A DNA stretch of 21,715 nucleotides from Promethearchaeota archaeon (GCA_048941265.1 JBHLNT010000017.1:22931-44645); one strand, 5' to 3'; numbered from the stretch's first letter, positions 1 to 21,334 are shown. Program-made: numbers and translations. The notes: a model not told the origin generated them from the sequence alone.

Positions 1-436
1 TGTTTACTTTTATGATGCATCGGATGATAGCTTAATCGGTACAGATTTAGGCGTTTCGAGTGGCGCAACTGCCTCAACAGAATGGACTGGTCTCGCATGG
101 GGCACTTCCTATTCATGGTATGTGATTGTAGACGATGGAATGACTAGCGTAAATTCTCCCGATTGGAACTTCACAACTAACTATGTCCCAAGCATTCCGA
201 TAAATCCAAACCCCTTGGATGCTTCTACCCGAATATTCAATAATCCAATGTTAAGTGTGGAAGTATCAGATGCGGACGGAGATCCGGTGGATGTTTACTT
301 TTATGATGCATCGGATGATAGCTTAATCGGTACAGATTTAGGCGTTTCGAGTGGCGCAACTGCCTCAATAGAATGGACTGGTCTCGCATGGGGCACTTCC
401 TATTCATGGTATGTGATTGTAGACGATGGAATGACT
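1..436 (+). repeat. Intragenic direct repeat, period 291 bp
   Basis: 1..145 matches 292..436 with one mismatch seen (aca/ata). Confidence 0.9.
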
Positions 437-1774
437 CTTATTAATTCCCCTATCTTTTATTTCGTGACCAATTTTGTTCCATTAATAAGTAATCCTTTAC
501 CTCCAGACGGATCCTCTATGATGAGTTTTAATCCTACATTAAGCGTGGATATATCAGATGCGGATGGAGACATAATGGATGTCTATTTCTATGATGCATC
601 GGATGATAGCTTAATCGGTACAGATTTAGGTGTTTCGAGCGGAGGTACTGCTTCTGTTTCCTGGTTGGGGCTTTCAGGCAATACGAATTATCAATGGTAT
701 ACGATCGCTACTGACGGTTTAGCCTCTACCCAGTCTGCCACCTGGTCATTTTCTACTGCTAACAATGCTCCTAATGCTCCAACTAACCCTGTTCCTGCGG
801 ACGGAGCGACTGGTGTATCTGGTAATCCAGTATTAAGCGTGGATGTGTCCGATCTCGATGGAGATTCTATGGATGTTTCCTTTTATGATGCTTCTGACGA
901 TTCCTTAATTGGAACCGATACGGGAGTCTTGAGCGGAGGTACTGCTTCTGTTTCCTGGTTGGGGCTTTCAGGCAATACGAATTATCAATGGTATGCGATC
1001 GCTACTGACGGTTTAGCCTCTATCCAGTCTGCCACCTGGTCATTTTCTACTGCTAACAATGCTCCTAATGCTCCAACTAACCCTGTTCCTGCGGACGGAG
1101 CGACTGGTGTATCTGGTAATCCAGTATTAAGCGTGGATGTGTCCGATCTCGATGGAGATTCTATGGATGTTTCCTTTTATGATGCTTCTGACGATTCCTT
1201 AATTGGAACCGATACGGGAGTCTTGAGCGGAGGTACTGCTTCTGTTTCCTGGTTGGGACTATCGGAGGGTATGACTTATCAATGGTATGCGATCGCTACT
1301 GACGGTTTTACCTCTACCCAGTCTGCCACCTGGTCATTAACTGTCTTAGAGGACACCCCAACTTGGGATGTAATGCCAACCAACCAAACAATACAATATG
1401 GAAATGATTTTAGCTATGATTTAAATGCCTCTGACAGTTCCGGTATCGATAATTGGTGGATCAATGATACCTTAAATTTTGCAATTGGTAATGATGGTAT
1501 GATAACTAATATTGTTATTTTATCTGTGGGTGTTTATTGGTTAGAAGTAAGAGCTTATGATGCTTATGGTCGTTGCTGTAGTGCTATATTTAAGGTCACT
1601 GTAGAGGAAAAGCCTGACGGTGGTGGCGGCGGCGGTGATGGTGGCGGTGGTGGCGGCGGTGATGGTGGTGGAGAAGAAGCAATTCCAGGATATGATTTAT
1701 TGTTTACATTGGCTCTGATAGCAATTATGTCATTGATATTAATCAGAAAAAAAAATAAAGTCTTCTCATACTAA
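2..1774 (+). CDS. Cell-surface repeat protein, 5'-truncated by the window edge: ~97-98 aa Ig/FN3/cadherin-like repeats, Gly-rich linker, C-terminal Loki-CTERM/PGF-CTERM-like anchor
   Basis: The frame is open from position 2 (VYFYDASDD...), so the track start at 122 is not the real start. Repeated SVDVSDxDGDxMDVxFYDASDDSLIGTD...YxWY units. Ends IPGY + hydrophobic helix + RKKNK. Confidence 0.85.
   Translation, partial: VYFYDASDDSLIGTDLGVSSGATASTEWTGLAWGTSYSWYVIVDDGMTSVNSPDWNFTTNYVPSIPINPNPLDASTRIFNNPMLSVEVSDADGDPVDVYFYDASDDSLIGTDLGVSSGATASIEWTGLAWGTSYSWYVIVDDGMTLINSPIFYFVTNFVPLISNPLPPDGSSMMSFNPTLSVDISDADGDIMDVYFYDASDDSLIGTDLGVSSGGTASVSWLGLSGNTNYQWYTIATDGLASTQSATWSFSTANNAPNAPTNPVPADGATGVSGNPVLSVDVSDLDGDSMDVSFYDASDDSLIGTDTGVLSGGTASVSWLGLSGNTNYQWYAIATDGLASIQSATWSFSTANNAPNAPTNPVPADGATGVSGNPVLSVDVSDLDGDSMDVSFYDASDDSLIGTDTGVLSGGTASVSWLGLSEGMTYQWYAIATDGFTSTQSATWSLTVLEDTPTWDVMPTNQTIQYGNDFSYDLNASDSSGIDNWWINDTLNFAIGNDGMITNIVILSVGVYWLEVRAYDAYGRCCSAIFKVTVEEKPDGGGGGGDGGGGGGGDGGGEEAIPGYDLLFTLALIAIMSLILIRKKNKVFSY
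637..1339 (+). repeat. Intragenic near-perfect tandem repeat, period 294 bp (98 aa)
   Basis: gagcggaggtactgc starts at 637, 931 and 1225. 637..963 is nearly identical to 931..1257, with two substitutions seen. Confidence 0.9.
1616..1672 (+). repeat. GGN low-complexity tract encoding a D-G6-D-G7-D-G3 linker
   Basis: gacggtggtggcggcggcggtgatggtggc... directly before the sorting signal. Confidence 0.85.
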
Positions 1775-3239: not shown

Positions 3240-4241
3240 ATGACAGAAGACCAAAATGATCCAATATCACCTGATTATCTACAAAAATTTACGTATCGAT
3301 TATATGATGGTAAATTTCAACCTAGATGGATGCGAGTTTTATATTTAATTCGTTTTGAATTGATATCAACTTGGCGTAAAAGTAAATTTGCTAAATATTT
3401 GATGGTAGTAATCCTTGTTTTTAGCTTTTTTTCAATATTAGGTGCTGCAAGGTTAAGATCAATAGAAATTGAGGATGGAGAGGGGAAAGTTGTGGTACGG
3501 GATGCGTTAAACGAATCTATTGCTAGTTACTTCGCAATAAATCTTTCATTTATTCTTTCAAATCCTGATGGCATCACCTATGGTTTAGGCAGAGGATTAG
3601 GCATGTTGTTGTTAATTGTCATAGGACTCGCAGGTTCTGGGTTTTTTGCTGATGATAAATATGGGAAAGTAATTGAAATCTATTTATCTAGATTAGAAAA
3701 GAGAGAATATCTCGTTGGAAAGGTTGGAGCAATTGTGATTTATATTAACATATTTGTCCTCATCCCACTAATTATAACGGGGGTTCTTTTTGTGCAATCA
3801 TTGGAAAAAGATCACGAAAAGTTTATAGACTTTTATACGGGTATTATTTTATATTCGGTACTGTGCTCAATAATACTTGGCTTATTTATTCTCGTTCTAT
3901 CAATTTTTGTTGAAAAGCGAGCCTATGCTAGCCTAATTTTTTTCTTGGTTTTTCTTTTTGGTAACATTATAGGAATAGCGATTGTATATGATAACTTGGA
4001 TAACGAGTTTTTATTACTTGTCTCTCCAACCAATTTCTTGGTTTTATTAGCCTATGTTTGTTTAGGTGATTATGATTTAGGTGTATGGGATGCGAAAAAG
4101 GAAAAATATATCGGACTTAATCTTAATAATGGTATAGGTTTAGAATATTGGCATGTATTTCTTCAAGCATTTTTGTTAATTTTAGTTTTTAGTTTAATCT
4201 TAGCCTATAAAATATGGAAAACGACAACAGAGGAATTATAA
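3240..4241 (+). CDS. ABC-2 type permease
   Basis: About 6 hydrophobic helices and a D-x5-IEIYLSR motif. Lies between two ABC ATPases with 2 nt and 0 nt gaps. Confidence 0.8.
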   Translation: MTEDQNDPISPDYLQKFTYRLYDGKFQPRWMRVLYLIRFELISTWRKSKFAKYLMVVILVFSFFSILGAARLRSIEIEDGEGKVVVRDALNESIASYFAINLSFILSNPDGITYGLGRGLGMLLLIVIGLAGSGFFADDKYGKVIEIYLSRLEKREYLVGKVGAIVIYINIFVLIPLIITGVLFVQSLEKDHEKFIDFYTGIILYSVLCSIILGLFILVLSIFVEKRAYASLIFFLVFLFGNIIGIAIVYDNLDNEFLLLVSPTNFLVLLAYVCLGDYDLGVWDAKKEKYIGLNLNNGIGLEYWHVFLQAFLLILVFSLILAYKIWKTTTEEL

Positions 4242-5213
4242 ATGAGTAAAACTTCAAATAAATTAGATATCATTGCTAAACTCGACAATGTAACAAAATC
4301 ATTTGGAGAGGTTGTTGCTGTTAGCGATGCTTCATTTTCTATCGAAAAGGGAAAAATAACGGGCTTCCTTGGACCAAATGGTGCGGGAAAAACAACTTCA
4401 ATTAAAATGATATTGGGATTAATCAGACCACAGAAAGGAAGAGTCACCTTATTTGGTAAAGATCCCTTTTATAACTCCAGGATAAAGCAACATATAGGAT
4501 ATATCCCCGAAGTAGAGGCTTTTCCTAAATGGATGAAAGCACGAGATTATTTCTATTGGCTTGGGCGCTTTCAACTTACAAAAAAGGAAGCATTTCGACG
4601 CACAAACGAGGTATTAGATGAGATTGGATTGAACGATGTAGCAAATAAACGCATCAGGAAATTTAGCAAGGGAATGAAGCAACGAATGAAGATTGGGCAA
4701 TCATTACTTCATAAACCTGCGCTAGTAATCGGGGATGAGCCTTTTAATGGTTTGGATCCAGTTGTAAGAAGAAAAATGTATGAATTATTTAAGGACTATG
4801 CTCGAAAGTATAATTCCACGTTTTTCATATCGTCGCATATACTTTTTGAAATAGAAAAGCTTTCTGAGACGGTTATCTTGATGTATAAAGGGAGGACTAT
4901 TGCTCAAGGTACACCAATTCGCATTCGAGAGATGATCGAAGATCAACCACACTCCATTCAAATTACTGTAAAAGATTCAAAAAAATTATCTACATTACTT
5001 ATCAATAATGCCAATGAAGGCGTTGTTTCACAAATTCAATTTCAAAAAGATGTCCGTTCAAACGAAGATCAACTCGTAGTTTTAACAAACAAACCTCGAG
5101 AATTTTATAGCTTAGTAACGGATCTCGTCTGCGATCACGAAATTCCAATATTAGAGATAAAGGCTACTGATGAGGGGCTTCAGAACTTATATAAATCCCT
5201 AACAATAGGATAA
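4242..5213 (+). CDS. ABC-2 type exporter ATP-binding subunit
   Basis: GPNGAGKT, FSKGM, IGDEP, SSH. ATG directly abuts the previous TAA. Confidence 0.93.
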   Translation: MSKTSNKLDIIAKLDNVTKSFGEVVAVSDASFSIEKGKITGFLGPNGAGKTTSIKMILGLIRPQKGRVTLFGKDPFYNSRIKQHIGYIPEVEAFPKWMKARDYFYWLGRFQLTKKEAFRRTNEVLDEIGLNDVANKRIRKFSKGMKQRMKIGQSLLHKPALVIGDEPFNGLDPVVRRKMYELFKDYARKYNSTFFISSHILFEIEKLSETVILMYKGRTIAQGTPIRIREMIEDQPHSIQITVKDSKKLSTLLINNANEGVVSQIQFQKDVRSNEDQLVVLTNKPREFYSLVTDLVCDHEIPILEIKATDEGLQNLYKSLTIG

Positions 5214-5224
5214 AAGGTGATATT

Positions 5225-6079
5225 ATGACTAATATAGAAGAAAAAATTAACTCAACTCAATACATTGAAGATACAATTCGCGCTAAAAGTATAAAAGAAA
5301 TAGTGTTTGATCAACAAGAAAAATTGATCGTTAGCGTTAAAATTGGCTTCAAAACATTTATTAACAGTAAAAAATGGTTAATTTATCTGTTATTAGCTTT
5401 CATGTGGATTCCTGTTATAATAATCATTGAAGATTATGATCTACAAATCGAAAAACCAGATGAAGCATTCGTTAGCGCAATGCTTGATGGTTTGTTTCCT
5501 ACGATATTCATATTTGGCTGCCTACTACTTAGCCTTCCTCTCAGCGCGGACGAAATCTCAGATCATTCTATAGAACTCTATCTCGTTAGACCAATCAAAC
5601 GAGAAGTTTATTGGTTAAGTAGATGGATTGTTGTAAATGTTGCGGTTTATTGCGTAAATATTATAATATATATCGTCTATTATTTGTTTGTCCATGCATT
5701 CGCAGAAGAGGGAGTGTTTGCAGGTGTAGAAGAGAATCTTCTTGTGTTTGGAAAGGTTGCGATTATACTCCTTCTGGCTACCTTAATTTATTCTGGAAGT
5801 TTTCTCTTGGTAGGAATGATAGGTAATCGGGGTTTGCTTCTAAGTTTCATGTTAGCGATATTTGAGTTATTCCTTATTCAATTCTTTTTCCTTAGTAAAA
5901 ATCCCTATATTCCACAAAATAATATATATGAAATCGCAAACGATTTATTACCAAATTACGTTGATTTTGACACGCCAGATGATTTAACATTACAAAACGC
6001 GTGGATATATGTAACTATATTTCCAATCGTAGTATTCTTTGCAGGTGCTTTTTATCTTAGAATGCGAGAGATTAAATAG
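5225..6079 (+). CDS. ABC-2 type permease
   Basis: About 6 TM helices, DEISDHSIELYLVRPIKR motif typical of ABC-2 permeases, aaggtga RBS upstream. Confidence 0.82.
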   Translation: MTNIEEKINSTQYIEDTIRAKSIKEIVFDQQEKLIVSVKIGFKTFINSKKWLIYLLLAFMWIPVIIIIEDYDLQIEKPDEAFVSAMLDGLFPTIFIFGCLLLSLPLSADEISDHSIELYLVRPIKREVYWLSRWIVVNVAVYCVNIIIYIVYYLFVHAFAEEGVFAGVEENLLVFGKVAIILLLATLIYSGSFLLVGMIGNRGLLLSFMLAIFELFLIQFFFLSKNPYIPQNNIYEIANDLLPNYVDFDTPDDLTLQNAWIYVTIFPIVVFFAGAFYLRMREIK

Positions 6080-6165
6080 ATGAAATTAAAAAGTAAAATA
6101 AATAATTTTTTATTTTTATTCTTAAAACTTTTACAGGATGTTATTAAAGAATAGAAGATTTTATA

Positions 6166-6540
6166 TTATTTTATCATAGCTATTGCTTCTATTTCAACAA
6201 GCATTCCAGCAGCAGGTAAATTTGCCACCTCGACAGTAGTCCTCGTAGGAAAATTTTCTGACACACCGTTGTCTTCGAAAAACTTCTTATAGGTTCTGTT
6301 CATTTTTCCAAAATCTTTTATATCTTTCAAAAATACTGTTGTTTTTACGATATTTGCGACCTTTAAACCTGCGGCTTCGACAATTGTTTTAATATTTTCT
6401 AAAACAGTTCGAGTTTGATCTTTAATATTGTCCATCCCCGCAGCGGGACCTTGCCCTGAGACAAAAAGTAAATTTCCAGTTTTAACACCTGGAGTATAAG
6501 GACCTGCTACAGGAGTACCTGGTCTTATATATTCAGCCAT
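6166..6540 (-). CDS. ridA: RidA/YjgF/UK114 family enamine/imine deaminase
   Basis: GPYT, LFVSGQ, PTRTTVEV (catalytic Arg), VEIEAIA. Confidence 0.9.
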   Translation of the reverse strand: MAEYIRPGTPVAGPYTPGVKTGNLLFVSGQGPAAGMDNIKDQTRTVLENIKTIVEAAGLKVANIVKTTVFLKDIKDFGKMNRTYKKFFEDNGVSENFPTRTTVEVANLPAAGMLVEIEAIAMIK

Positions 6541-8257: not shown

Positions 8258-8971
8258 TTATTTTTCGATCTGCCTTCCTACTCCGTAATACAATAAAAAC
8301 GCCGTAGCGTATAGACTTAGACCTGATATTGATGTCATTAATCTAAATGTTGGATCGTTTAAATAATTCGAAATAGAAGATATATAGAGAATGGTAAAGT
8401 ATCCTAATATAGCCAAAATATAAAAGAGCCATTTCCTTTTTATAATTTCATCTTCAAATTTTTTATAAACCTGTATCGAATAATAGAGCGTTGGTATGAT
8501 ACACCCACTGATAACGATGAGAGCATACACTAAAAATGCTAATGACCAAACGGGTCTCCAATTTGTAGAAGCGTCAATTGTTATTCCACCATACCATCCA
8601 ATTGGCGCTAATCCGAGCAAAAAGCCCCCGTAGATTACTGCGATAAGGTTATGTTTTTTTATAGTAAATACTCTTTCTGATTTTAAAACAATTAGAGTAA
8701 ATATCAGCAAATATACAATGGCAAAACAAAATAAGTAGTATGTTATAAAATGTAAAATTTTAACTAAAGGATTTACATAAAGCGAAACATAAACAACATT
8801 TATAATAGTCGCAGAAGCAGATAAGAGATAAAATGTACTAAAAAGCTGATTTAACCGTTTAGTACTCCTTCTCAGAATTATTAGACCGAAGATAATATAA
8901 ATAATTCCCATTCCCAGCTGGACAACATAAATCTGGATAAATCTTGCTGTATCGACTTGACAAAGTACCAT
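8258..8971 (-). CDS. Stand-alone 7-TM membrane protein (HisKA_7TM-like sensor module, no output domain)
   Basis: Seven hydrophobic segments counted by eye in 237 aa, basic loops after TM1/3/5, WRPVW in the TM4-5 loop. Confidence 0.65.
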   Translation of the reverse strand: MVLCQVDTARFIQIYVVQLGMGIIYIIFGLIILRRSTKRLNQLFSTFYLLSASATIINVVYVSLYVNPLVKILHFITYYLFCFAIVYLLIFTLIVLKSERVFTIKKHNLIAVIYGGFLLGLAPIGWYGGITIDASTNWRPVWSLAFLVYALIVISGCIIPTLYYSIQVYKKFEDEIIKRKWLFYILAILGYFTILYISSISNYLNDPTFRLMTSISGLSLYATAFLLYYGVGRQIEK

Positions 8972-15725: not shown

Positions 15726-16874
15726 ATGGATCTTAATTTAAGATATATTTATCTTCCACTTTTATTCGTATCTGGAGTTTTAGGTTATCAAATTGTTTTT
15801 TATTTTATTTATCAGTATAATAAAGCAAAAAAAGAGAAATTAAAGCTAAGTAGAATTCTTTTAGCTTATGGATTAATATTTGGAATATTATTAAGCGGAT
15901 TTTTTATTCGTGTAATAAATCTTTATTATATTGGACCAGCTAATTTAGAAATTTTTGGATTACTTACCAAAATAACTTTTATTTTGCTTTATTCAGCATT
16001 CATGTTGTTTTTTATTATTATCTCAACTGAACCTTTTCATAAAATAATATCCGCTAAGTTTACAAAAACTTTGGCTATATTAATGATAATTCCAATTACT
16101 TCTACAATTTTATTTCAAATAGATTCACTTCCATTTATTTTTATCTCAACGACTTCACTTTTTTTATCTTATATATATATCTTGTTCTTTCATTCTAGAA
16201 TTGTTAGACTTTCTACGGGGCAAATAAAAAAAAGACTAAATCTTATATTTGGTGGATTTGCTTTATGTGTAATTCAGCATATTATTGGTGGATACATACC
16301 CAGTCGGGTATTATTTCGAAGTTATTCCCAAATCCTTCAAGTTATATCTGCACCCATTTTCATTTGCGGATTAATGATTGTTTTTTTAGGTGTGTTTAAA
16401 TTCCCTGCCTTCCTTGAGTTTGGATGGAAACAATCTTTAATACAGTTTTTAATAATTAATAGAAGTGATCATAGGGTGCTTTATTCATTTGATTTCAAGA
16501 ATGAAGACCAAATTCAGATTAAAAAATTCCCAAAAATCGAAGAAAGTAAATTAATACTTTCAAGCGGTATTATTGGAATTGATGCTATTATCTCTAAAAT
16601 TACAGACTCAAAGTCGGAGCATATTGATACAATAAAACAAGAAGATTTCCTTGTTCTTTTGAACTATGGGGATGATTCATTATCATCTATAATTTATTGT
16701 TTAATAGTAAATAAAGATATGATGAGTTTTCATTATTTTCTAAAAACAATCAAAAATAAATTCCAACAAATTTATAAAAATATTCTTATTAATCTGAATG
16801 AACTAAAGGAAGTTGAAGATAAATTGTTTTTAGGTTTTGATAAATATTTAATAAATTTAATAGAATTAGATTAG
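15726..16874 (+). CDS. 7-TM membrane protein fused to a C-terminal longin-like domain
   Basis: Seven hydrophobic segments in aa ~7-224, junction PAFLEFGW, then a beta-beta-alpha-beta-beta-beta-alpha-alpha pattern (FLIIN, VLYSFDF, LSSGIIGIDAIIS, IKQEDFLVLLNYG, YCLIV, FLKTIKNKF). Confidence 0.7.
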   Translation: MDLNLRYIYLPLLFVSGVLGYQIVFYFIYQYNKAKKEKLKLSRILLAYGLIFGILLSGFFIRVINLYYIGPANLEIFGLLTKITFILLYSAFMLFFIIISTEPFHKIISAKFTKTLAILMIIPITSTILFQIDSLPFIFISTTSLFLSYIYILFFHSRIVRLSTGQIKKRLNLIFGGFALCVIQHIIGGYIPSRVLFRSYSQILQVISAPIFICGLMIVFLGVFKFPAFLEFGWKQSLIQFLIINRSDHRVLYSFDFKNEDQIQIKKFPKIEESKLILSSGIIGIDAIISKITDSKSEHIDTIKQEDFLVLLNYGDDSLSSIIYCLIVNKDMMSFHYFLKTIKNKFQQIYKNILINLNELKEVEDKLFLGFDKYLINLIELD

Positions 16875-16889
16875 GAGGGGATTGATTAA

Positions 16890-17981
16890 ATGATTTATAA
16901 TATATTTCCGATAAATGGTCCATTGAAAGAGCCCTTGCTAATAATTGAATCATTTATAGTTATTTTCTTTTTAGAAATTGGAGCAATTTTTTGGATAAGA
17001 GCAAAGAATGAAGATGTAAATGAATTAAAAGGTTTACAAGAAAAAGCATATGGATGGTTACTTATTGGCTACTCAATAATGTGGTTGTTTATTATAATAG
17101 GCGATCATTTTGTTGAACCCCTCTATTTTAGAACCCTGATTTTGAATATTGGATTTTTGATACAAATTATTTGCCTTACTATTTTCTTTAAAATTATAGA
17201 AAACAATAAAATATTTTGGAAGAAATATCTGTTTACTAAAATTTGTATTGTAATGACTGGAATTTACCTTTTCATTTTTATCTTTTTTATTTATGATGCC
17301 GCTTTTGTGGTATCTGCATTCTGGATATTACTTGCAATATTTACTATATATTATTTAAAAGAGTTAAGTTCGAATTTTTATATAAAAAAGGAATTGGGAG
17401 ATTTCAAATTAATCTCTCTGAAATTTTGGTTAGGATTAATTATAACAGCTTTCGGCTATCAACTTACAACCAGAACTATCGTGAAATTTGAAGGTTTAGA
17501 ATTACGTTTGTTTGGAGATATTTTGCAGTTAGTTGGATTAATTTTTATATCATCATTTTTATTCTCTGTTCCCTCGTTTACAGAATATGAATGGCGCGAT
17601 CAAATTGAATATCTCTCAATAATGCATAAATCGGGATTATTTATATATCAAAAGGCATTTAAAAATAAGATAACATCTGCTATGGATGAATCAGTTATAA
17701 CAGGGACATTAACAACAATTAAAATGATGCTAGAAGAATTCGGTGATTCTAATAGTATTTCTATCATTCGAAAAAAAAATAAAACATTTATTATTGAACC
17801 AGGTAAATTTGTTTATGGAGTTATAATATGTGATAAAGAGTTAGAAGCTCTTAAAATCTTATTAAACAAATTTATTGAAAAGCTTGAAATTATTTATGAT
17901 AATATTTTAATGAGTTGGGATGGAAACTTGAAGGTTTTTATTCCAATTGATGATATTGCTAAAGAGTTTTTTAGCAGCTAA
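16890..17981 (+). CDS. 7-TM membrane protein fused to a C-terminal longin-like domain (likely divergent paralogue)
   Basis: Seven TM segments, junction PSFTEYEW, IMHKSGLFIY, ITGTLTTI, FIIEPGKFVYGVII, LLNKFIEKLE, WDGN..F. Its RBS aggagg overlaps the previous stop codon. Confidence 0.72.
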   Translation: MIYNIFPINGPLKEPLLIIESFIVIFFLEIGAIFWIRAKNEDVNELKGLQEKAYGWLLIGYSIMWLFIIIGDHFVEPLYFRTLILNIGFLIQIICLTIFFKIIENNKIFWKKYLFTKICIVMTGIYLFIFIFFIYDAAFVVSAFWILLAIFTIYYLKELSSNFYIKKELGDFKLISLKFWLGLIITAFGYQLTTRTIVKFEGLELRLFGDILQLVGLIFISSFLFSVPSFTEYEWRDQIEYLSIMHKSGLFIYQKAFKNKITSAMDESVITGTLTTIKMMLEEFGDSNSISIIRKKNKTFIIEPGKFVYGVIICDKELEALKILLNKFIEKLEIIYDNILMSWDGNLKVFIPIDDIAKEFFSS

Positions 17982-18047
17982 TAAGTTTTAATAATTCATA
18001 AAAAATCTAATAATAACATAGGTTAAAGGGATTGAAGGTGGATTAAT

Positions 18048-18572
18048 ATTTCGCCAGATTATACTTTCAAAATCAGTGTTTTTGGAGATTCGGGGGTAGG
18101 GAAAACTTCTATGATTGTACGTTATCTCACTGACCAATTTGATTTAGAAATTGGAGAAACTATGGGAGTTGATATTAGGATTAAAAAGCTCATTATAAAT
18201 GATACTAATATAACATTACAAATCTGGGACTTTGTAGGCGAGAATAGATTCAGAATCATGTTTCCTAGTTATTCGCGTGGCTCATCAGGAGGGATTTTCA
18301 TGTACGACATTACTAATAAAATTAGTTTGAACAATTTGAACGAATGGCTCAATATTTTTAAAAACATTAATCCTCAGAGTCCTGCCATCATGGTTGGAGG
18401 AAAATCCGATCTTAAGGATATGAGAACTGTTTCAACCGAAGAAGCTATAAGCATATCAAAATCCAATGATTTTTACGATTATCTTGAATGCTCTGCTAAA
18501 ACGGGTGAGAATATTGAAATAATTTTCAGCAAACTACTTGAAAAAATTATGGAGAATGCCGGCTTTTTATAA
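18048..18572 (+). CDS. Rab-like small GTPase (Ras superfamily); true N-terminus lies upstream of 18111
   Basis: In-frame upstream extension SPDYTFKISVFGDSGVGKTS contains G1. Also G2 TMGVD, G3 WDFVGE, RF, G4 GKSD, G5 CSAK. No C-terminal Cys. Start at ATT 18048 is inferred. Confidence 0.88.
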   Translation: MSPDYTFKISVFGDSGVGKTSMIVRYLTDQFDLEIGETMGVDIRIKKLIINDTNITLQIWDFVGENRFRIMFPSYSRGSSGGIFMYDITNKISLNNLNEWLNIFKNINPQSPAIMVGGKSDLKDMRTVSTEEAISISKSNDFYDYLECSAKTGENIEIIFSKLLEKIMENAGFL

Positions 18573-19972: not shown

Positions 19973-21334
19973 TTACATTTCTTCTCGTATTTTAAGGATT
20001 TTCTTCTTTAATTTTTTAATCCGAGAGTCAGAACCATCATATATTAGAAAGCCTTCAAGAATTTTCAATGCCTTTTGATAACAATATATAGCATTTATAT
20101 AATCATTATTTTTTTCTGCATTTTCCCCTGTTTCAAGAGCAAAATCTAATTCTACCTGCTTAGCTTTTTTCTTGGTTTCAAAGATCATTCTTGAAATCTT
20201 ATTGATATCATCCTTTAAACTAAATTTTTTCGCAACAATGAGTGCTTTATTATATTCCTTTCGGGTGATATCAAACGTTGAAGATTTTTCTGCTGTTTTC
20301 CCTCTTTTTATAAGATTTTTAATTAATTGTTTTGCGCCATCATTGTTTAAATTCTCCATCTGTCCTTCAAGTTCGTTTATATCATCATCATTAATGATTA
20401 TCGATGAGATAGGTTTAATTTTTATCGCACGTTTATGATTTGCTTCTTTATTTAATTCAAGGTTAGAAACAACGGTTTCTAACTTCATAGGAACGATAAT
20501 ACTTTTATTTAAAAGGTTATAAATTCCATGAAGTATAACTTTAGCATCTATATTTACAATCTTTTTGAGTTTCTCTAGCAGAGTATTAATATAGAAAAAG
20601 GATTTTGCACTCAGAGTATCTTTTGCAAGTTTTATTATCACACTCTGAATTGGATCATCATTTATTTCTTCTAAAAATTCTGGAGGAATTGCATATGCCA
20701 ATGTCATAGGAAAAACGAAATTAATATTGAATGAGCCAATGATAAACTCAACCATATGTTTGGAACTAAAAGCCCCAGTATTTTGATATATAATTAGTTG
20801 TTCTTTGAAACGGTTTTCAAATTCAGATAAAAAATGTGAGACAAGATTTTTCATATGTTCAGACGAGTTATGGTCAAGTATCATAATTAACCTTATATAA
20901 TCTCCGTTCTTTAGCAATATATTGAATTTTTTATATTGTAATTCATAAAAAGGGTTTTCTAAAACTAAACCTGAATCTGTATTCAGCCCTTTGCTCGATT
21001 CTGAAAAAGTTATGTTTGCCTGAATGAATCCACTCAACAGCTCAACTTCTATGTCAACAGCGGAAACAGGATAATTGAGGAGCGCAATACCTGATTCTTT
21101 ATCCATTAGAATGATATGCTTAATATTTAAAACATCGAGGAAAATCTGCCATATTCTATTCCGTTCCGCCTGAATTCGTTTCTCATCTACACTTAAAATT
21201 TGCATATCAGAACTAAGTTCAAATCCCATTTTTTTTAATCGATTTGTTACACATTCGTTACAAGATTTAGGAGCTTTAGGACAATTCAGAGTACCACAAT
21301 TGAACCTTAACCCATTTATGATAAATATTGCCAT
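19973..21334 (-). CDS. Soluble multidomain protein: N-terminal Cys4 cluster, longin-like domain, possible winged helix, C-terminal TPR/MIT-like helices
   Basis: CGTLNCPKAPKSCNEC; IILMDKESGIALL, ELLSGFIQANITFS, YKKFNILLKNGDYIRLIMIL, FLSEFENRF; two GxxAEK...YxKAL helical hairpins. Confidence 0.68.
   Translation of the reverse strand: MAIFIINGLRFNCGTLNCPKAPKSCNECVTNRLKKMGFELSSDMQILSVDEKRIQAERNRIWQIFLDVLNIKHIILMDKESGIALLNYPVSAVDIEVELLSGFIQANITFSESSKGLNTDSGLVLENPFYELQYKKFNILLKNGDYIRLIMILDHNSSEHMKNLVSHFLSEFENRFKEQLIIYQNTGAFSSKHMVEFIIGSFNINFVFPMTLAYAIPPEFLEEINDDPIQSVIIKLAKDTLSAKSFFYINTLLEKLKKIVNIDAKVILHGIYNLLNKSIIVPMKLETVVSNLELNKEANHKRAIKIKPISSIIINDDDINELEGQMENLNNDGAKQLIKNLIKRGKTAEKSSTFDITRKEYNKALIVAKKFSLKDDINKISRMIFETKKKAKQVELDFALETGENAEKNNDYINAIYCYQKALKILEGFLIYDGSDSRIKKLKKKILKIREEM

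Follow-up and report, generated by a model that had tools for sequence, protein, structure and literature searches.

A stretch of 21,715 nucleotides (nt) from a Promethearchaeota archaeon (GCA_048941265.1 JBHLNT010000017.1:22931-44645; hereafter the window) carries two adjoining genes, here called A and B, whose products each join seven predicted membrane helices to a predicted longin domain, and a gene for a Ras-superfamily GTPase that follows them on the same strand. We favour, with a little better than even confidence, the reading that A and B form a longin heterodimer embedded in the membrane, which docks a private GTPase and regulates it, and that the three genes make up a conserved module of a single Asgard class. 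The longin domains of the two proteins would pair, as longin and roadblock domains generally do, and the pair would form a platform at the inner face of the membrane on which the private, unlipidated GTPase docks through its switch I, interswitch and switch II regions. Docked in this way, the GTPase would be localised to the membrane and its nucleotide state would come under the control of the platform, the likeliest modes being nucleotide exchange or nucleotide-dependent docking, comparable to those of Mon1-Ccz1 and the TRAPP core.

Both proteins have a series of hydrophobic segments ahead of the C-terminal domain. Kyte-Doolittle windows mark seven of them in A (residues 10-28, 46-64, 83-101, 112-130, 137-155, 173-191, and 206-224) and five clear and two merged segments in B, and the AlphaFold2 models of both proteins (mean predicted local distance difference test score, pLDDT, 82.8 for A and 80.4 for B) have seven long helices ahead of residue ~225. 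Across 28 A-family and 32 B-family sequences, inward loops carry on average 12.8 (A) and 14.5 (B) lysine plus arginine residues, as against 3.1 and 3.3 in outward loops. By the positive-inside rule, these counts place the N-terminus of each protein outside and the C-terminus inside, and the longin domains of both are predicted to be cytoplasmic. Profile comparison indicates that A and B are full-length paralogues, the two families aligning over 336 columns across both domains (hhalign probability 98.9%, E 1.2e-17); by BLASTP, the alignment is confined to the C-terminal domain and the last membrane helix before it (23% identity, E 2e-6). The two domains are joined by a shared motif, P227-A-F-L-E-F-G-W234 in A and P228-S-F-T-E-Y-E-W235 in B. 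F226, P227, F229, E231, and W234 are invariant in the A family, and in the B family E232 does not vary, with P228 and W235 conserved to 90% or more. The ATG of B (16890) lies 15 nt beyond the stop codon of A, and TAGGAGGGG supplies a Shine-Dalgarno-like GGAGGGG that begins on the last base of that stop codon. An earlier note on this DNA had described two adjoining, co-oriented genes 15 nt apart with a ribosome-binding site overlapping the stop, proteins of about seven membrane helices, a junction motif P-x-F-x-E-[FY]-x-W, and longin-like soluble domains, and had predicted a cytoplasmic C-terminus. The reading frames and sequence bear out the gene arrangement, hydropathy, model helices and loop charges agree on the topology, the motif is present in both proteins and nearly invariant across their families, and the predicted models have the order of elements and the fold matches (Foldseek and VIA) expected of longins.

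The C-terminal domains of A and B are, on the evidence of these models, of longin fold. The order assigned by DSSP is strand-strand-helix-strand-strand-strand-helix(-helix), which is the longin order, with strands in A at 238-245, 250-256, 302-305, 308-314, and 322-328 and helices at 273-292 and 333-355; the first element past the junction is a strand in both models, and neither has an N-terminal helix. When A residues 233-382 and B residues 238-363 were compared with 48,161 chains by VIA-align, dozens of longin chains were returned at Z of at least 10. The A domain matches BLOC-3 (8zwc_B; Z 13.3, root-mean-square deviation [rmsd] 2.6 Å, 128 aa), CPLANE (7q3d_C; 13.0), TRAPP Bet5 (3cue_C; 12.8), and MON1A-CCZ1 (9lol_A; 12.6), and the B domain matches the Sec22 longin (3egd_C; Z 14.1, rmsd 2.2 Å, 117 aa), the VAMP7 longin (13.8), and CPLANE (13.6), as well as a solved Lokiarchaeota longin (8yqg_B; 11.8) and a roadblock protein of MK-D1 (10.7). 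A Foldseek search of the PDB with the whole A model gave nothing at E<=0.001, its best matches being the TRAPP longins 3cue and 2j3t (E ~5e-3), followed by sigma-adaptins, MglB, Mon1-Ccz1, and BLOC-3. At the level of sequence the kinship with longins is almost invisible: the A-family profile matched no PDB sequence, the B-family profile matched Trs23 (3cue_A) alone (E 0.055), and one of the 32 B members reached Clat_adaptor_s at E 9.6e-4.

A structural model of A residues 225-382, B residues 226-363, and the GTPase, each with its own alignment, was scored for the GTPase only and not for the interface between A and B. The interface score, the interaction prediction score from aligned errors (ipSAE), was 0.85, 0.86, and 0.85 in three runs; the best of three controls, that in which chain A was replaced, scored 0.35, and two controls with replaced partners scored 0.00. 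The runs share at least 90% of their contacts, with a partner pLDDT of at least 89. On the GTPase the contacts involve the N-terminal strand (residues 2-8), switch I (32-45), interswitch residues 56 and 58, switch II (67-80), and the C-terminal tail (171-173); on A they involve helix 1 (271-291), and on B the first hairpin (246-251), helix 1 (265-283), and the loop 344-348, with the conserved residues S248, G249, W343, and G345 among the B contacts. The model thus supports the placement of the GTPase switch regions on the longin pair. The earlier note had proposed that the two longins form a membrane-tethered exchange factor or docking site and that the 7TM part senses a ligand, an interpretation that is supported in part.

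The same placement would also suit a membrane-bound GTPase-activating protein (GAP) that, in the manner of MglB, repositions the GTPase's own catalytic residues, instead of serving as an exchange factor or anchor; we regard this as unlikely. The MglA-MglB system of Myxococcus and Thermus likewise consists of a small Ras-like GTPase and a dimer of the roadblock/longin superfamily that sits on its switch regions, encoded by adjacent genes, and MglB is among the fold matches (Foldseek 1j3w, 3t12, and 6h5b; VIA 3t1r_A, Z 10.6, for B). The predicted contacts cover both switch regions, and the acidic residue found at the position of the catalytic glutamine (14 of 14 aligned sequences) implies an unusual chemistry of hydrolysis that a partner could control. 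However, MglB is a soluble roadblock homodimer of helix-first order that acts as a GAP, whereas A and B are a predicted heterodimer of longin order, lacking an N-terminal helix and fused to membrane domains, and the best fold matches of A are the exchange-factor longins of BLOC-3, CPLANE, TRAPP, and Mon1-Ccz1. Because neither longin domain contains a conserved arginine or lysine, regulation by exchange or docking would be favoured over that by an arginine-finger GAP, although a finger-free, MglB-like mechanism would still be compatible with this absence.

The association of the three genes was followed in 17 related loci and 40 regions picked by coordinates that promised flanking sequence, not by gene content; 7 of these 57 fetched loci were dropped as duplicates and the two modules of the window's own genome were added, giving 53 distinct A genes. 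In 52 of the 53 modules B comes directly after A and on the same strand, the exception being locus L051, and the pairing of the two genes is obligate, which is indirect evidence that the two longin domains dimerise. Two loci depart from a single pair: L055 (contig C50 of genome G163) has two A-B pairs in tandem, and on the short contig L011 the order is B, A, B. Of the 53 modules, 25 have a Ras-like GTPase no more than 300 bp from the pair, in one of four arrangements: upstream and divergent (12), upstream on the same strand (6), downstream on the same strand, as in the window (4), or downstream and convergent (3). With 69 Ras-like open reading frames (ORFs) in the 5.0 Mb of the window's genome, we estimate that such adjacency would arise by chance in ~2-3% of cases. 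When flanking ORFs of the 53 loci were clustered, the GTPase family was found at 29 loci and the next real family, thiolase-like, at 7, with no other widely shared neighbour. The linkage of the three genes in other genomes, anticipated in the earlier note, is therefore strong, but it is not universal, since 22 of the 53 modules have no GTPase within 300 bp despite at least 900 bp of flank on each side. The arrangements are clade-specific on a quick IQ-TREE phylogeny of the 53 A proteins, where 14 changes of label are needed against a mean of 28.2 for shuffled labels. The second module of the window's genome, on contig C77, consists of A' (5024-6169, minus strand), B' (3925-5055, minus strand), and a GTPase (3329-3856, plus strand) convergent with B', and a third copy of B stands at the start of contig C79.

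The GTPases beside the pairs appear to share a common origin. A FastTree phylogeny was built from 24 linked GTPases, that of L006 being left out as its sequence is cut ahead of the P-loop, together with the 49 unlinked GTPases of the window's genome that scored at least 60 bits. In this tree 23 of the 24 linked proteins form one group (SH-like [Shimodaira-Hasegawa-like] support 85) that contains none of the 49 unlinked ones, spans all four arrangements, and includes both linked GTPases of the window's genome; the outlier is the upstream GTPase of L031. A second tree added the four best GTPases from each of five genomes with a GTPase-less module (20 in total), none of which has an A- or B-like gene within 3 kb, and two of the 20 joined the linked group, whose support was 94. 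Members of the linked lineage have a G3 motif of the form D-x-x-G-[ED], a G4 motif that is mostly GKxD, a tail free of cysteine, and a conserved hydrophobic C-terminal dipeptide. Five positions at the predicted interface (D/E4, D/E32, I35, M39, and R77) distinguish the linked clade from 12 close unlinked paralogues. The trees support a GTPase lineage dedicated to the A-B modules.

With the window protein counted in each case, word-indexed searches brought up 37 relatives for A and 38 for B, and all named relatives are proteins of metagenome-assembled genomes of Promethearchaeota, Lokiarchaeota, or Odinarchaeota; matches in the ESM Atlas were unnamed clusters only, most commonly of Promethearchaeota. 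A HMMER search with the B profile returned 167 cluster representatives at E<=1e-30, 516 at E<=1e-10, and 1546 at E<=0.001, and the best 150 of the 1546, all of 428 aa or less, included no fusion to a GTPase. The window's genome also encodes further proteins with 6-10 hydrophobic segments that match the B profile through their C-terminal part, on whose contigs (C351, C113, C337, and C129) no GTPase was found, and more than 10 stand-alone proteins of ~140-155 aa that match the longin part of the profile.

A number of results weigh against the module as we read it, beginning with the modules that have no GTPase beside them and the 6 of 53 that are cut by contig ends. The distribution is narrow: A was matched at E<=1e-20 in 75 of 400 genomes of the phylum, all of them in the window's class (64 of 134 in the window's own family, f1; 1 of 14 in f3; 4 of 4 in f4; 3 of 3 in f5; 2 of 2 in f7; none in any other), so the module is an accessory system that is patchy even among close relatives. 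None of the 28 A or 32 B sequences reached the curated threshold of a Pfam longin or roadblock model (Sybindin, Longin, Fuz_longin_1, Clat_adaptor_s, Robl_LC7). The trees, made with FastTree or a quick run of IQ-TREE, are of moderate support, and of the five genomes with GTPase-less modules, three have none of their four best GTPases inside the linked group. In the complex model, the control with a foreign chain A still attains 0.35, and the calibration of the score, in which 116 of 157 solved complexes and 2 of 215 mismatched pairs attained the same mark, is only roughly valid for a three-chain job run with our own alignments. Complexes of similar build (Mon1-Ccz1-Ypt7, TRAPP-Ypt1, and MglA-MglB) have been solved, and the pass of the model may reflect likeness to these only. 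Finally, judging from the behaviour of Ras mutants, the variant G4 motif GKSD of the window's GTPase could entail that nucleotide is bound weakly, in which case no exchange factor would be needed.

Some of these results would fit a pair that works without any GTPase, for example by scaffolding other longin or roadblock proteins at the membrane, with adjacency reflecting GTPase abundance and shared ancestry. Besides the 22 modules already mentioned, each of these genomes holds 27-46 close GTPase relatives, the sampled loci are related so that their counts are not independent, and the same genome has its further multi-helix, longin-ended proteins with no GTPase nearby. Nevertheless, adjacency is ~20 times the chance estimate and persists over four arrangements with at least 14 label changes on the A tree, a single GTPase lineage accounts for 23 of 24 cases, and the complex model passes its controls; we consider a pair independent of GTPases very improbable.

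The GTPase of the window matches Pfam Ras (PF00071) over profile positions 1-161 of 162 (E 1.5e-42). Its C-terminus, ...IMENAGFL, is without cysteine and hence without a prenylation signal, in keeping with the earlier note's description of a protein that has no lipidation tail. That note had also called the protein Rab-like, a label that holds loosely: the G domain is of the Ras superfamily, but the protein lacks a cysteine tail, the catalytic glutamine, and the NKxD motif. In G3 the sequence DFVGE has glutamate in place of the catalytic glutamine of DTAGQ, and in G4 GKSD replaces NKxD. Glutamate or aspartate occupies the glutamine position in all 14 aligned sequences, and ~15 of the 69 Ras-like ORFs of the same genome share the G3 and G4 variants, including four in tandem on contig C250.

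The start of this gene is unusual. The sole ATG-started ORF (18111) encodes 153 aa and begins past the P-loop, whereas ...FKISVFGDSGVGKTS... appears when the frame is extended back to an in-frame stop (18033-18035); between that stop and the P-loop there is no ATG, GTG, or TTG. The claim of the earlier note that the GTPase follows B by 66 nt consequently holds with an ATT start at 18048 and fails with the ATG-started frame. Start codons of this kind are conserved. Of the linked GTPases, 24 have an intact 5' end, and in 14 of these the stretch from the preceding in-frame stop to the P-loop contains no ATG, GTG, or TTG codon; in 17 of 24 linked orthologues the codon 12 positions ahead of the P-loop glycine is ATT (10), ATA (6), or ATC (1). 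These codons are preceded by GAGGGG-like or GGAGG-like words (GAGGGG, AGGGGA, or GGAGGA at the aligned place), and in L015 no start other than ATA is possible, owing to an in-frame TAA two codons before it. In the window's genome as a whole, only 6 of 67 Ras-like ORFs with a P-loop are without a canonical start. The sequence does not stem from misassembly: between 17770 and 18600 it is identical in an independent contig (run X2), and a diverged strain (run X4) keeps the ATT at 18048, where the upstream word is AGGAGG. The AUU or AUA start is conserved and weak, which suggests that the GTPase is kept scarce or is regulated at translation initiation. Among the 23 clusters of public gene calls listed at 60% identity or more to the window's GTPase, 22 are of 136-164 aa and have lost the P-loop, and one is of full length (181 aa); the truncated calls that were examined begin at an internal methionine or a recoded valine. 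Because the conserved AUU or AUA start leads gene calls to internal methionines, surveys built on public gene calls can misjudge these GTPases, whose P-loop is lost.

The membrane domains are probably more than anchors, since they contain charged residues that are invariant in the family. In B, E20, E29, D72, E104, and R206 are invariant and lie in or at the ends of membrane helices, E20 and E29 both in helix 1; in the A membrane domain Y26 and Y31 are invariant and R62 is nearly so. At E<=1 neither A nor B matches any Pfam family, and 60 aligned family members gave only scattered weak matches. Fold searches with the membrane domains of A and B return mostly chains of G-protein-coupled receptors (GPCRs; adhesion, class C, and class A) at VIA Z 11-13, with rmsd of 4.0-5.6 Å (over ~210-220 residues for A), and these Z values fall inside the range that the tool gives for generic helical bundles, which attain them without kinship. 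The best match of the B membrane domain is alkaline ceramidase 3 (Z 12.4, rmsd 4.0 Å, 196 residues).

This conservation bears on two further readings. In one, A and B would be a true receptor, in which a signal arising outside the cell or within the membrane is received in the conserved charged pocket of the seven-helix heterodimer and passes through the invariant junction motif to the longin platform, which then loads GTP onto the private GTPase. GPCRs likewise have seven helices, with the N-terminus outside and the C-terminus inside, and a cytoplasmic face, which in A and B would act on a GTPase. They differ in that coupling in A-B would run through an added longin to a small GTPase and not from the helical bundle to G-alpha; no Pfam 7tm family is matched by A, B, or the 60 family members, and membership of A and B among GPCRs is not claimed. 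We think a true receptor improbable; if it were one, this would be an archaeal seven-transmembrane (7TM) receptor and G-protein system made from longin and Ras parts, and a working prokaryotic model, possibly a relative, of eukaryotic receptor-to-GTPase coupling at membranes. In the other, the signal would run in reverse: the activity of the system would reside in the 7TM part, as a transporter, channel, or lipid enzyme for instance, the longins would dock the GTP-bound GTPase, which would thereby turn that activity on or off, and A and B would be its effectors. The membrane domains are indeed conserved beyond the needs of an anchor in the residues named above, the best match of the B membrane domain is a seven-helix enzyme, the switch-region contacts suit an effector as well as a regulator, and the longin of SRX, which binds SR-beta-GTP, is among the fold matches. 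On the other hand, neither protein matches a Pfam transporter or enzyme family at E<=1, the 60 members giving scattered single matches, and the helical-bundle Z values lie in the generic range; a role as effectors seems doubtful to us.

The preferred reading, that of a membrane-embedded longin heterodimer and its private GTPase, has its parallels in several known systems. The tri-longin Rab exchange factors Mon1-Ccz1, BLOC-3 (Hps1-Hps4), and CPLANE (Fuzzy-Inturned) likewise comprise two paralogous longin-bearing subunits; they are the best fold matches of the A longin (Z 12.6-13.3), and in the A-B model, too, the GTPase switch regions are predicted to lie on paired first helices and strand hairpins. 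They differ from A and B in that the eukaryotic subunits have three longins each, are soluble, and are recruited by lipids or other proteins, whereas A and B carry one longin each behind seven membrane helices and have no detectable sequence similarity to them. The TRAPP core pair Bet5-Trs23 (TRAPPC1-TRAPPC4, sybindin family) provides the top Foldseek matches (3cue and 2j3t), and Trs23 the sole sequence-profile match. TRAPP requires Bet3-family subunits at its flanks, and one of these reaches into the nucleotide pocket, whereas no Bet3-type protein is a conserved neighbour at the A-B loci, and TRAPP is not an integral membrane complex. In the conservons, the actinobacterial G protein systems CvnA-D, the sensor is a separate, histidine-kinase-like polypeptide accompanied by CvnC; no kinase or CvnC-type protein was found among the window neighbours by Pfam or as a conserved neighbour of the modules.

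The features of the locus are collected in Table 1, with coordinates of related genes at other loci. Downstream of B, on the same strand and at ~0.3-1.5 kb, six loci have a conserved protein of ~155 aa that begins MLIREAGI and does not match the B profile. Elsewhere in the window, a 237-aa multi-helix membrane protein without a Pfam family is encoded at 8258-8971 (minus strand), and similar proteins flank the module in four other loci (for example, L057 1844-2572). A 453-aa protein encoded at 19973-21334 (minus strand) has a cysteine-rich N-terminus and, at its end, a weak match to the MIT domain (E 7e-4, below the Pfam cut-off); it was considered as a further longin protein and rejected (hhalign probability against the B longin profile 0.33%). 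At 2-1774 (plus strand) lies the 3' part of a gene for a surface protein with near-identical repeats of ~95 aa, which ends with a glycine-rich stretch and one hydrophobic segment.

Table 1. Features of the A-B-GTPase locus and of related loci. Positions without a locus or contig name are those of the window.
Feature	Location	Strand	Extent	Basis or remark
Gene A, 7TM-longin protein	15726-16874 (stop codon included)	+	382 aa	ORF
Membrane domain of A, seven predicted helices	15726-16397	+	residues 1-224	hydropathy and AlphaFold2 model
Junction motif of A, F226-P-A-F-L-E-F-G-W234	16401-16427	+		conservation, 28 sequences
Predicted cytoplasmic longin-fold domain of A	16437-16871	+	residues 238-382	DSSP and fold search
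TAGGAGGGG	16872-16880	+		stop codon of A overlapped by ribosome-binding site of B
Gene B, 7TM-longin protein, paralogue of A	16890-17981	+	363 aa	ORF
Predicted cytoplasmic longin-fold domain of B	17604-17978	+	residues 239-363	DSSP and fold search
GAAGGTGGA	18034-18042	+		Shine-Dalgarno-like site ahead of GTPase start
Ras-superfamily GTPase, ATT start codon	18048-18572	+	174 aa	Pfam Ras
GTPase P-loop	18084-18107	+		
GTPase G3 motif DFVGE	18228-18242	+		
GTPase G4 motif GKSD	18399-18410	+		
Aligned GTPase start regions	window 18033-18110; L004, L005, L010, L012, L013, L015, L016, L017, L019, L023, L030, L035, L056			
MLIREAGI protein	L035 2140-2610; L043 7783-8241; L045 1350-1808; L057 1170-1640; L050 2135-2644; L059 2324-2794			
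Further membrane proteins matching the B profile	C351 15974-17104; C113 (three genes); C337 11755-13068; C129 3418-4599			

The architecture of a membrane domain followed by a longin is already catalogued in the Asgard clusters of orthologous genes (asCOGs), where entries of a membrane protein plus a sybindin-like longin are given for L. ossiferum and P. syntrophicum and marked as putative eukaryotic signature proteins (PMC9834061, supplementary file 4); candidate counterparts of A and B are cog.005893, cog.012914, and cog.013555. In words these entries have the same architecture as A and B, and the likeness is by names alone, the rows concerned giving asCOG names with nothing on pairing or gene order (PMC9834061); no main text in the literature searched contains the phrase "fused to sybindin-like". 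According to a study of MK-D1, its GTPase genes do not as a rule share operons with genes for roadblock, longin, or TRAPPC3 proteins, so that genome layout is a poor guide to the partners of GTPases (Tran et al., 2024, PMC10933270). The preprint of Liu et al. reports an operon of LAMTOR1-like, Rab-like, and DENN genes and many longin fusions, and in its main text the words "transmembrane" and "7TM" are absent. The portion drawn on here of a 2026 preprint (PMC13734099) refers to structural clusters of 7TM and "class C GPCR" type in Asgard archaea, giving no detail on them. In the literature on Asgard and archaeal longins, roadblocks, small GTPases, and 7TM proteins or GPCRs, preprint supplements lying outside its scope, no description of the pair with its GTPase was found. 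The A-B pairing, the dedicated GTPase, and the conserved non-AUG start thus appear undescribed.

Asgard genomes encode dozens of small GTPases together with dozens of longin and roadblock proteins, and the matching of regulators to GTPases is mostly unknown. The A-B-GTPase module would be an exception, in that a matched set of regulators occurs with one GTPase lineage and a predicted, mutable interface between them. It may also offer an answer to how an unlipidated archaeal GTPase arrives at the membrane, namely that the regulator would itself be the membrane anchor. As a rare matched set of regulator and switch, the module would be open to testing at the bench.

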